Source: a virus
Direction: 5' to 3' (one strand)
Length of the DNA: 24,512 bases
UHGV virus genome: UHGV-0105321
Below the pieces are notes generated by a model. The model searched no databases, was not told the origin of the DNA, and was given only the letters and a program-made list of their open reading frames with translations. This document shows positions 3,346 to 5,776 of the stretch, one piece after another (position 1 is the first letter of the stretch; each line of letters begins with the position of its first letter). The position numbers and the translations under genes were made by a program.

Positions 3346-3732
3346 TCAGTGGAAGGTTGCCTGGTTTGCTGTTTTGTGAGTTGTTTTTCCCTTTTCGTGC
3401 TGGCATTCAGGGCAGTCGCACTCAGAATTTTCTCTTGCAAACTCAAGAGCCTGCGCCAGTGTATGGATTTGTTGTGCTCCAATGTTGCTTCTGACGACTT
3501 CACATGCAGCATGAATATATGGGCTTGGTGTTTTGCCATTTAACCCACATAAAACAAAACGACTGTCCTTATATTCGTTATTTCCAACTTCTGTAAGTAC
3601 TGAAAAAGAAAATACAAAGTCGATTTTGTATTCTTTGCATATTTTACTGATGCGTTCTGCAATTTCTTTGACTTCATTTATTGCATCAGGACTAGTTTCG
3701 GAAAATATTTCATTTTGCGCAAGTTCTTTCAT
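3346..3732 (-). CDS. Hypothetical protein, 128 aa, Cys-rich C-terminus (CDCPECQHE)
   Basis: ORF in the pL-operon orientation; the N-terminal half lies in visibly AT-rich DNA; weak ribosome-binding site. Confidence 0.45.
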   Translation of the reverse strand: MKELAQNEIFSETSPDAINEVKEIAERISKICKEYKIDFVFSFSVLTEVGNNEYKDSRFVLCGLNGKTPSPYIHAACEVVRSNIGAQQIHTLAQALEFARENSECDCPECQHEKGKTTHKTANQATFH

Positions 3733-3815
3733 TTTTATTTTTCCGTGGTTGATAATTAATGCGGTTTTATTTCGGCTTGTCTGTTACAGATATGGAAGGT
3801 GTATTTTATTACTCG

Positions 3816-4037
3816 TCACAACGACGCTGCTTTTACGGGTAAGCCATCGCGCCCGATGAAAACTTTAATCATGCAGTCGGTAATGCATGTTTTTGTTGTG
3901 AAGTTACGAATATAGAGTTTTCTCTTTTCAATATTGTTTGCTGAAGCGATATATGTCCGACCTTCATGAAGAACATAATCGCCAGGCGTCACGCACTGAC
4001 GTGGTATTTCATCAGTTCCGAAGTGATGAGCAATCAT
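3816..4037 (-). CDS. Hypothetical small protein (about 73 aa from ATG 4037; the ORF extends to a GTG at 4055)
   Basis: ORF in operon orientation; ATG at 4035..4037 is preceded by GGAGAT at good spacing. Start choice is uncertain. Confidence 0.35.
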
Positions 4038-4210
4038 AATTATCTCCATTTTCACAAATGAACTTTGTTGATGCGGTGCCTGGTACCTCCAGGTGACGTT
4101 AACCAGTTAACAACTAACGCCGGGTCAGGGGACGATGACTTTCCGTGACATCCTGTCGGTTTAACTGTTCCGCGTGCGCATAGCCGCATTCACCGCATCA
4201 CAAAATTCAC

Positions 4211-4253
4211 TTTAAAAAGGGCGGACATCAGCAATCGGCAAACCGATGTCCGC
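4211..4253 (-). terminator. Hairpin (10-bp stem GGCGGACATC/GATGTCCGCC) followed on the minus strand by CUUUUUAAAG; candidate tL-like terminator
   Basis: Perfect 10-bp inverted repeat 4220..4229 / 4244..4253 with a T-run on the minus-strand side. Confidence 0.4.
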
Positions 4254-4493
4254 CAAGGGCTACACACAGCAATGTTGTTATTCACAACCGGAAGCGCACG
4301 GTCGAAGAAATCTAACGACAAGCCTTCAATGGGAAAGAGTCTTCGCCGTGCACTTTCGTGTTGTACCCTGGCTTTCAGGGGAATGTCTGTTCAGTAAACT
4401 GAGAGTGCCGGAACTCACCCGTGTCCGGCGCACGATCTCCACCTCACCCGTGGAGAACTCCTCAACTACAAACCCCGTAAGGAGAGTGAATTT

Positions 4494-4703
4494 ATGACAC
4501 AAGAAGAAAAAGTGATGTTTCTGATGCGGCTGGCTGTCGATACCTACAACACACAATTCAGGGAGAAAGATATACCTCAAAAGGCAGTTCCTGCCGCGGT
4601 AGATAAGGGCGGTGCTATTGCCGTATTTTACGATGTATTTGAATCATTTTTTGATGAAAAACTCGACGCTGTTAGCGACTTCGGAACATCGAGTAATAAA
4701 TAA
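4494..4703 (+). CDS. Hypothetical small protein, 69 aa, oriented against the surrounding leftward operon
   Basis: Strong ribosome-binding site AAGGAGAG 7 nt upstream of the ATG; preceded by a roughly 200-nt structured leader; 3' end converges with the minus-strand gene 4672..5031. Confidence 0.45.
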   Translation: MTQEEKVMFLMRLAVDTYNTQFREKDIPQKAVPAAVDKGGAIAVFYDVFESFFDEKLDAVSDFGTSSNK

Positions 4704-5031
4704 CGTTCATTACGGTTCTTAAACAACAATCAGTGGGCTTGATGTTGTTCTTTTCAAGCTCACTTGCCATCAATTCCATTATTCTTGCGCTTACACGAAT
4801 TATTTGGTGGCTGTAAGCGACGCAACTGTCGCTGATATTGCTGTTTATTTCTATTACTTCATTTTCACCATTAGCATCAACTTCAGATGCGCTGTTTTCA
4901 TTATCCTGTTTCAGTGCTTTTTCTGCCATCTGGATGCGTGTCAGCGTTGCGGAATTTGGGCTAAGTCGATAAACCTGTTTGGCATCTTCCAGAAGCAGGG
5001 CGATAATGTGCTTCAGTTCTGTTTCGTTCAT
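4672..5031 (-). CDS. Hypothetical protein, about 119 aa from the internal ATG (MNETELKH...)
   Basis: ORF in pL orientation; the ATG at 5029..5031 is preceded by GGAG at about 7 nt, so it is preferred over the upstream in-frame start at 5052. Confidence 0.45.
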   Translation of the reverse strand: MNETELKHIIALLLEDAKQVYRLSPNSATLTRIQMAEKALKQDNENSASEVDANGENEVIEINSNISDSCVAYSHQIIRVSARIMELMASELEKNNIKPTDCCLRTVMNVIYYSMFRSR

Positions 5032-5212
5032 AGTTAACTCCGGTAGTTGCAATTTATTAATATCAGGCGGTCAGCTCTTTAAGCTTCTGAACTGCTTTAT
5101 TCATTTCATCCATACAGTCGATGAATTCGTCCAGTTTAAGCTGCATTTTTCCGGCGGCCTGAAGAATTTCAAGTTTTAAGGGCGCAAGTTTTTTGTTGAA
5201 TTCATCATCTTC

Positions 5213-5776
5213 CTAGCGTTTTTTCTCCGCAATTTCGGCGGCTTTCAGCAATTCTTCAGCCTGTTTTCTGAGTATTTCTGGTGAAGGTGAAACTGCTTTG
5301 AGGTTATTCACTTCAGGTTCCTGTTGTTGCAGAATTAATTTGTTGCATTCTCTGCGTGAGCGTTTCATTGCAGATTCGCACTTCTTGCAATAAATGGCTC
5401 TCCCGTCACGCTTGCTGGCATCTGAATAAAAATCATTGACTGATTTTGTCTGCCCGCATCTGGTACATAATTTTGATTGAAGGTCCTTAATGATTGTGAC
5501 GTTTCCTTCCCGCTTGGGATATCCATATTTTTTGTGGCGTAAAAAGGTTACTCCGTTACCAGAACCTTCTTTTCTGACCTTAAATACAATGATGCTTTCC
5601 CGTTTATCGATAAAATCGATGAGCTGGTTTCTCTCCTTTCCTGACAGTTCGGCAAATGTCTTAACTTTTTTAGTAACCTCAGTAAGGCGAACGCCGTCAG
5701 GCATTTTTTCAACGAAGTTTTTAATCTCTGCAAGCGGACGCCATAATTTTTGCGGCAAAACTGAAGGCGTGGTCAT
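5213..5776 (-). CDS. Basic hypothetical protein, 187 aa, with a CxxC...CxxC zinc-ribbon-like motif (CTRCGQT...CKKCES)
   Basis: ATG 5774..5776 lies 1 nt after the N stop codon with GAGGTGA upstream; occupies the first position after N, where lambda has ral/sieB-type accessory genes. Confidence 0.6.
   Translation of the reverse strand: MTTPSVLPQKLWRPLAEIKNFVEKMPDGVRLTEVTKKVKTFAELSGKERNQLIDFIDKRESIIVFKVRKEGSGNGVTFLRHKKYGYPKREGNVTIIKDLQSKLCTRCGQTKSVNDFYSDASKRDGRAIYCKKCESAMKRSRRECNKLILQQQEPEVNNLKAVSPSPEILRKQAEELLKAAEIAEKKR

Follow-up and report, generated by a model that had tools for sequence, protein, structure and literature searches.

In phage lambda, the genes N - ral - sieB - cIII - kil - gam follow one another in the leftward early operon, and this segment is a variable, non-essential delayed-early region that includes an inhibitor of host cell division. 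The Rac prophage of Escherichia coli K-12 carries kilS - kilR - ydaE - racC - recE with sieB on the opposite strand, the small RNA (sRNA) gene kilS (b4833) being annotated in the 5' untranslated region (UTR) of kilR. RIL-seq first revealed K-12 KilS and a northern blot confirmed it, together showing a discrete RNA of about 100 nt that associates with Hfq (PMC8175672), while K-12 KilR inhibits FtsZ and cell division, and in Rac, NusG-dependent termination normally blocks read-through transcription into kilR (PMC10798246). A third such locus is dicF-dicB of the Qin prophage, where an sRNA with a GC-rich terminator hairpin and a leader of about 175 nt precede the gene of a small division inhibitor. 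Here we describe a block of accessory genes at positions 3346-5776 of the UHGV virus genome UHGV-0105321, whose whole stretch of 24,512 nucleotides was analysed and is called the window in the following. The block takes the same operon position as the lambda segment and has the layout of the Qin locus, and it carries homologues of KilR and KilS.

The block very probably belongs to a lambdoid prophage of the POCJ13 / 75-02 Stx / PhiR5_2 type, where it would form the accessory part of the leftward early (pL) operon controlled by N; it is a mosaic cassette equipped with KilR and KilS. In a megablast search of phage records, window 3200-5800 differed from Escherichia phage PhiR5_2 by a single mismatch in 2601 bases, while it was 96.6% identical to phiSTEC1589-Stx1c and 91.7% identical to the Shigella phages POCJ13 and 75/02 Stx. 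The cassette itself is found at 92-100% nucleotide identity and with the same gene calls in these four phages and in the O104:H4 prophage, where all of its genes are annotated as hypothetical except for Kil; for POCJ13, 75/02 Stx and O104:H4 prophages the identity is 92-98%. The full block was furthermore present in 60 of 5426 complete E. coli genomes, the O104:H4 outbreak lineage among them. The cassette is thus already known from public phage and E. coli genome records and represents neither a novel gene set nor a new system. Among contigs carrying close variants, the gene order is constant while the N and immunity alleles differ, and it reads N - 237-aa gene - 119-aa gene - (69-aa gene, opposite strand) - kilR - (ydaE) - 128-aa gene - RecE-like gene - gam - bet, with lengths given in amino acids (aa). 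The features of the block and the N gene at its start are as follows.

5780-6163, minus strand: antiterminator N gene (127 aa), marking the start of the cassette (Pfam N_peptide with 57.5 bits, cut-off 27.9, expectation value (E) 2.1e-15; called N in the PhiR5_2 record)
5063-5776, minus strand: gene of a 237-aa early protein (PHROG 2539), truncated to 187 aa in the window
5213-5215, minus strand: premature TAA in this gene, Gln188 to stop (G to A on the plus strand at 5215; CAA in PhiR5_2)
4672-5031, minus strand: orf119 (PHROG 2982), acidic protein of 119 aa with an isoelectric point (pI) of 5.2 (phrog_2982, E 2.9e-76, full length; GGAG 7 nt before the ATG)
4494-4703, plus strand: orf69 (PHROG 2605), acidic protein of 69 aa (phrog_2605, E 7e-45, full length; annotated by the Prokaryotic Genome Annotation Pipeline (PGAP) in RefSeq genomes)
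4214-4299, minus strand: homologue of the sRNA KilS (K-12 b4833), 77 of 94 positions identical to K-12 KilS (82%)
4038-4213, minus strand: untranslated kilR leader, mostly invariant in a four-way alignment with K-12 Rac, Rac-SA53 and the Qin dicF-dicB spacer
3816-4037, minus strand: kilR, Rac-type inhibitor of FtsZ and cell division (73 aa), by NF008465, phrog_294 and identity to the K-12 protein
3733-3815, minus strand: spacer with an apparent 5' remnant of about 45 nt of a deleted ydaE (weak local alignment, score 19)
3346-3732, minus strand: orf128 (PHROG 2016), 128 aa (phrog_2016, E 4.5e-77, full length)

An initial annotation, made from the letters of the window alone, had described four minus-strand open reading frames (ORFs) in this block, and all four are contained in the six-frame ORF list (187, 119, 73 and 128 aa). 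They have full-length PHROG matches (E 1e-36 to 1e-130) and ratios of non-synonymous to synonymous polymorphism (pN/pS) below 1. In line with our results, the annotation treated the block as a variable set of accessory genes within the leftward early operon. The first of these genes abuts N as described: the N stop codon TGA (5782-5780) is followed by an ATG at 5776-5774 that is preceded by GAGG 8 nt upstream. It had also placed the small ORFs in AT-rich DNA, and the GC content is indeed 0.35-0.40 over 3451-4050 compared to 0.45-0.52 in the flanks. By describing ORFs only, however, it skipped about 630 bp (4038-4671), which hold the KilS homologue, the leader and the plus-strand orf69.

The ORF at 3816-4037 is KilR as judged by family membership and conservation. 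Its product scores 154.9 bits with NCBIfam NF008465 against a cut-off of 92, aligns over residues 1-72 of 73, matches phrog_294 (E 8e-36) and shares 66 of its 73 residues (90%) with KilR of K-12 Rac; the ORF is annotated as kil in RefSeq, and its pN/pS of 0.10-0.16 is low. We found no relation to lambda Ral, SieB, cIII or Kil in Pfam, NCBIfam or PHROGs when scanning the ORFs in 3240-5780, so the initial claim that recognisable ral, sieB, cIII and kil genes are missing holds for these lambda-type genes, but it overlooks a kil gene of the Rac type, which is unrelated to lambda Kil. Likewise, three of the four genes listed as unknown do lack an assigned function, whereas the one at 3816-4037 does not.

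The sRNA homologue upstream of kilR comprises a 5' hairpin, the single-stranded seed AUUGCUGUGUGUAG (4273-4260), a 13-bp terminator hairpin (4254-4220) and a U run (4218-4214). It has a fold energy of -35.5 kcal/mol (z -4.1), the hairpin being followed by five U, and one C-G pair of the terminator stem is replaced by a compensatory U-A pair in sister prophages. As in K-12, about 176 nt separate KilS from the kilR ATG downstream, and both the homology to KilS and the terminator place it with this sRNA. Three Rfam families scored below their gathering thresholds and were rejected as assignments. DicF (RF00039) reached 29.5 bits against 48, with only the terminator aligning and a different 5' seed in place of the one pairing with ftsZ; RprA reached 29.7 bits; and STnc100 (RF02076) reached 28.3 bits against 47 with many non-canonical pairs. 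These sub-threshold matches are explained by Rac carrying kilS in the kilR 5' UTR. DicF and KilS have only the terminator and the downstream leader in common, and PasD, a group of sRNAs reported to be related to STnc100, maps to a different prophage region close to Q and lpxR (bioRxiv 10.64898/2026.05.13.724894). Our promoter and terminator scan performed no better than on shuffled sequence and missed the KilS hairpin owing to its loop length.

Between KilS and kilR, the leader shows a degree of conservation far above that expected for neutral spacer DNA, and it recurs at about 84% identity in many phages beside dicB or kil. The leader might act as a structured regulatory RNA, load Rho or encode a small peptide. 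A 45-aa ORF within it (4052-4189, minus strand) was rejected as a gene, its only support being a weak partial PHROG match. In the four-way alignment, most of the leader and of the 3' arm of the terminator is also invariant in Qin, whereas the Qin seed differs from that of the window and the downstream gene is dicB instead of kilR. POCJ13 2342-2690, which corresponds to window 4040-4680, has the same terminator hairpin and leader, while the sequence upstream is DicF-like (GACAACCCCGCTGCAAC...) with another seed. Judging from these alignments, seeds appear to have been swapped on a constant scaffold of terminator and leader.

With Rac, the window shares the homologous leader and the order sRNA - leader - kilR - (ydaE) - recE-like gene, as well as a gene on the opposite strand upstream of KilS. 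The occupants of these positions differ: orf69 stands in place of sieB and orf128 in place of racC, each unrelated to its Rac counterpart, and where Rac has ydaE, the window has a deletion. Four records of sister prophages keep an intact 58-aa ydaE, encoding a zinc-binding protein, between kilR and orf128, and ydaE is retained in phiSTEC1589; it appears to have been deleted from the window lineage, leaving its 5' end behind. In Rac, recE is followed by recT, whereas the RecE-like gene of the window, which covers the first 598 of 877 profile positions, is followed by lambda-type gam, bet and exo. Finally, unlike in Rac, the cassette of the window sits behind a lambda-type N together with the 237-aa gene and orf119.

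These similarities suggest how the cassette might operate. In the lysogen, pL would be repressed, and stray transcripts would end at the KilS terminator or by the action of Rho and NusG, which we infer would keep the toxic kilR silent in this copy. Upon induction, RNA polymerase modified by N would continue past the terminator and across the leader; KilR would then be made and could block the function of the FtsZ ring, leading to an arrest of host division during phage replication. Transcripts stopping at the hairpin would in turn yield KilS as an Hfq-type sRNA, the seed of which is conserved in the window copy.

The KilS seed also resembles a host sequence. AUUGCUGUGUGUAG (window 4260-4273, minus strand) recurs without mismatch in the core sRNA RprA and is single-stranded in both RNAs; the identity spans 14 nt for the window copy and, with an added UC, 16 nt for K-12 KilS. 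As duplex folding of full-length sRNAs with mRNAs was uninformative, only a seed-restricted duplex prediction was kept, in which KilS of both K-12 and the window as well as RprA are predicted to pair at one site in the yncL 5' UTR (-37 to -15). The predicted energies are -18.7 kcal/mol for K-12 KilS, -17.6 kcal/mol for window KilS and -16.1 kcal/mol for RprA, and per 1000 shuffled seeds, 13, 19 and 51, respectively, did as well. DicF and POCJ13-type seeds gave no predicted pairing at this site. yncL has been reported as a KilS target (PMC8175672) and as a shared RIL-seq/TRIC-seq target of RprA (bioRxiv 10.1101/2025.09.11.675593). The KilS paper (PMC8175672) makes no mention of RprA, and the link is possibly known elsewhere. 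Based on the seed match and the predicted pairing, it is conceivable, if doubtful, that the KilS-type sRNA of the cassette is a phage-borne copy of the seed of core-genome RprA. If this is true, a Shiga toxin (Stx)-type phage would upon induction inject an RprA-like seed into the sRNA network of the host that is linked to Rcs and RpoS, and this seed and the division inhibitor KilR would derive from one transcript.

The genes orf119, orf69 and orf128 appear to be real accessory genes according to their family matches and conservation. We found 15 homologues of orf119, all source-named ones being from E. coli or Shigella, besides a distant relative in Edwardsiella phage EPP-1, and its pN/pS is 0.25-0.56. 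The ATG of orf69 is preceded at 8 nt by AAGGAG, a strong ribosome-binding site, and the contig collection lists a close variant of this gene in 8701 blocks. orf69 and orf119 are convergent, with an overlap of 32 nt at their 3' ends. EPP-1 encodes homologues of both orf69 (51% identity, E 3e-18) and orf119 (27%, E 8e-8) tail-to-tail with an overlap of 33 nt, and the preservation of this arrangement indicates that orf119 and orf69 are genuine and linked. A sequence search of the PDB with orf69 gave no match, and pairwise comparison revealed no similarity of orf69 to SieB or to rac10 of Rac-SA53.

The conserved convergent overlap raises the question whether orf119 and orf69 form a self-contained module regulated by their tail-to-tail overlap, with transcription of orf69 running antisense to the pL transcript, for instance as a toxin/antidote-like or lysogen-expressed pair. 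The maintenance of the 32-33-nt overlap between E. coli prophages and EPP-1 despite only 51% and 27% protein identity speaks for such a module, as do the strong ribosome-binding site of orf69 and its separate loss in POCJ13. On the other hand, neither protein matched a toxin-antitoxin or defence family, no promoter was detected for orf69, and both proteins are acidic and lack recognisable domains. POCJ13 moreover keeps orf119 without orf69, which argues against a strict toxin-antidote dependence, and we regard a self-contained module as unlikely.

For orf128, 26 homologues with 58-97% identity were found, every source-named one from E. coli, and an exhaustive profile search of 1.84 billion representatives gave no credible relative outside this E. 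coli family. Two marginal matches (E ~4e-4), one to a giant Ig-repeat protein and one to a protein with sub-threshold Bcl-2-like matches, were judged to be noise. The Cys-rich tail that the initial annotation had pointed out is present (ECDCPEC), but among 14 homologues only C107 and C110 are invariant, so it reduces to a single CxxC; an invariant SPYIHAA motif is found in addition. The pN/pS of orf128 is 0.2-0.7, its AlphaFold2 (AF2) model is unreliable with a predicted local distance difference test score (pLDDT) of 43, and pairwise comparison with RacC revealed no similarity. Neither orf119 nor orf128 matched a known family or defence model. Two further frames, 4326-4580 (minus strand) and 4246-4497 (plus strand), were rejected since they lack family matches and show almost only non-synonymous changes, and the plus-strand frame gains stop codons in relatives. 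A Pfam search with ten further small ORFs on both strands gave no match.

The gene next to N had been described as encoding a basic zinc-ribbon-like protein of 187 aa coupled directly to N. While the coupling was confirmed by the distance between the N stop and the following ATG, the 187-aa "protein" is a rare nonsense allele of a conserved 237-aa protein, as the comparison with related records indicates. From the ATG at 5776, the frame 5213-5776 encodes 187 aa, and the ORF list gives 188 aa from a TTG one codon upstream. A coding sequence of 714 nt (237 aa) is annotated at the equivalent of 5063-5776 in all phage and RefSeq records inspected. The substitution at 5215, A in the window and G in PhiR5_2, is the sole difference between the two across window 3200-5800, and a stop at codon 188 is found in the window but in none of the five related phages and prophages compared above. 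We sought an exact match to the 61-mer centred on the mutation and found it in none of the 60 complete E. coli genomes carrying the locus, the closest genome records being 98.4% identical (60 of 61 bases). In the protein collection, the 187-aa product occurs on 5 contigs, compared to 258 for the exact 237-aa sequence. The truncation deletes residues 188-237, which make up much of the C-terminal helix and include the invariant positions L202, E203, Q206, D216, D220 and K231. Because these residues are lost, the window copy is probably inactive. The 119-aa and 237-aa proteins are filed in one 90%-identity cluster (615 members) although they are products of adjacent, unrelated genes; this joint cluster is probably a clustering artefact arising from fused gene calls.

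A homology search with the 237-aa protein retrieved 67 clusters across the Enterobacterales, with Kluyvera, Enterobacter, Klebsiella, Edwardsiella, Pectobacterium, Salmonella, Providencia, Serratia and Pantoea among the named genera. The alignment reveals three modules, namely a conserved N-terminal domain, a variable middle and a strongly conserved C-terminal segment with the consensus SPE.LRKQAE.LLKAAE...KLE..Q...D..D...K.LK. The N-terminal domain ends in LRHKKYGYP, with the basic motif at the wing conserved. The AlphaFold2 model (pLDDT 83) predicts a helix-helix-helix-strand-strand domain (residues 9-81), a small beta ribbon with a helix (residues 93-146), a disordered linker and a single helix of 70 residues (166-236). 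The first of these is a three-helix bundle with a beta-hairpin wing and thus a predicted winged-helix domain. Its pI is 10.05, compared to 9.6 for the ribbon and 5.2 for the C-terminal helix. A Foldseek search of the PDB with the model gave no significant match (best E 0.07), the top ones again being winged-helix DNA-binding domains, and a PDB sequence search gave no match. In some variants of the family, an AlpA-type helix-turn-helix (HTH) domain is fused upstream. Its fold, its charge and the swaps with AlpA-type HTH domains make it most likely that the 237-aa protein acts early as a regulator that binds nucleic acids as a dimer. The pN/pS of its gene is 0.13-0.17, and in Serratia prophages a gene of the family holds the same place after N, following a small gene downstream of the repressor.

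The zinc ribbon, which the initial annotation had emphasised, proved to be an optional insert: homologues with the CxxC...CxxC motif measure about 237-252 aa and those without it about 172-205 aa, the latter making up roughly half of the family. In a comparison with viral models, the ribbon fitted the N-terminal ribbons of phage HNH proteins to within ~1-2 A over ~50 residues, and the matches of the protein to HNH/EndoVII entries in PHROG and BFVD are confined to these ~50 residues. As neither a Pfam match to HNH or EndoVII nor an HNH catalytic motif was detected, the 237-aa protein was not assigned to the HNH/EndoVII nucleases.

The initial annotation had further expected restriction-alleviation and exclusion functions to cluster here, with the unknown ORFs, above all the zinc-ribbon protein by N, replacing ral and sieB. 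The ORFs do occupy the position of ral and sieB on the lambda map, the ribbon (residues 99-161) matches phrog_5558, "Lar-like restriction alleviation protein", with an E of 2.6e-8, and orf69 lies on the opposite strand upstream of kilS and kilR, where Rac has sieB. However, none of the ORFs scanned in the interval matched Ral (PF11058), Lar or SieB in Pfam or NCBIfam, PADLOC gave no match for the five proteins of the interval, and EndoVII/HNH-type PHROGs match the ribbon equally well or better (E 9e-10 to 5e-6). The absence of the ribbon from about half of the family also implies that it is not the core function of this family. orf69 shows no similarity to SieB; it is acidic and, at 69 aa compared to 162 aa for SieB, has no evident hydrophobic stretch. 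Since nothing was found in its support, we consider a restriction-alleviation or exclusion role improbable.

That the ORFs are spurious or decaying frames of a degenerating prophage is very improbable: the nonsense mutation in the gene next to N, the loss of ydaE, the restriction of orf128 and orf119 to E. coli and Shigella without a known family and the poor AF2 model of orf128 would be in line with decay, but the same genes are intact in PhiR5_2 (listed host K-12 MG1655), POCJ13 and 75/02 Stx, the pN/pS is 0.10-0.7 across the four ORFs while changes in the alternative frames of 4246-4580 are mostly non-synonymous, the 237-aa family spans many genera of the Enterobacterales, the arrangement of orf69 and orf119 is kept in the Edwardsiella phage, and the Shine-Dalgarno sites are good. 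The initial annotation had itself named spurious ORFs in decaying DNA as the outcome that would overturn it, and as the ORFs are conserved in related prophages, this does not apply to the block as a whole.

Some findings do weigh against our view of the block as an N-dependent pL accessory cassette with KilR and KilS. The promoter region upstream of K-12 KilS is only partly conserved in the window, and no clear sigma-70 promoter was found for either orf69 or window KilS; the mechanism proposed for this copy is mostly inferred. The predicted template modelling score (pTM) of the 237-aa model is just 0.46, leaving the arrangement of its domains undefined. In addition, more distant 172-aa relatives of this protein are encoded elsewhere, flanked by a KilA-N gene and Q in the nin region, showing that linkage to N is not obligatory.

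As a discovery the block matters little, as the cassette is public and kilR and KilS have already been described. Its value lies rather in the correction: from sequence alone, a nonsense-truncated allele had been taken for a native small protein, the known toxin gene kilR had been overlooked, and so had the non-coding and opposite-strand parts of the operon. Modest leads are the N-adjacent family combining a winged helix with a coiled-coil-like helix, the tail-to-tail pair orf119/orf69 and the common seed of KilS and RprA.

A few observations concern the surroundings of the block. The large gam-linked gene (690 aa, 1166-3238, minus strand) matches only positions 1-598 of 877 in the RecE (exonuclease VIII) profile with 739 bits against a cut-off of 1269, and seems to lack the C-terminal part of RecE; gam and bet of the lambda type follow immediately downstream. 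A 113-aa gene (7782-8123, minus strand) in the interval from N to the repressor has a full-length match to PDC-S43, a candidate defence model of PADLOC (E 7e-42), and the two genes downstream of it, 7277-7765 (162 aa) and 6660-7280 (206 aa), match function-less PHROGs only. This trio in the immunity region (6660-8123) may be a lysogen-expressed defence or moron cluster. In PhiR5_2, the counterpart of the window's nin region (7606-8134) is annotated with a HigB/HigA toxin-antitoxin pair and an antirepressor among the nin genes.

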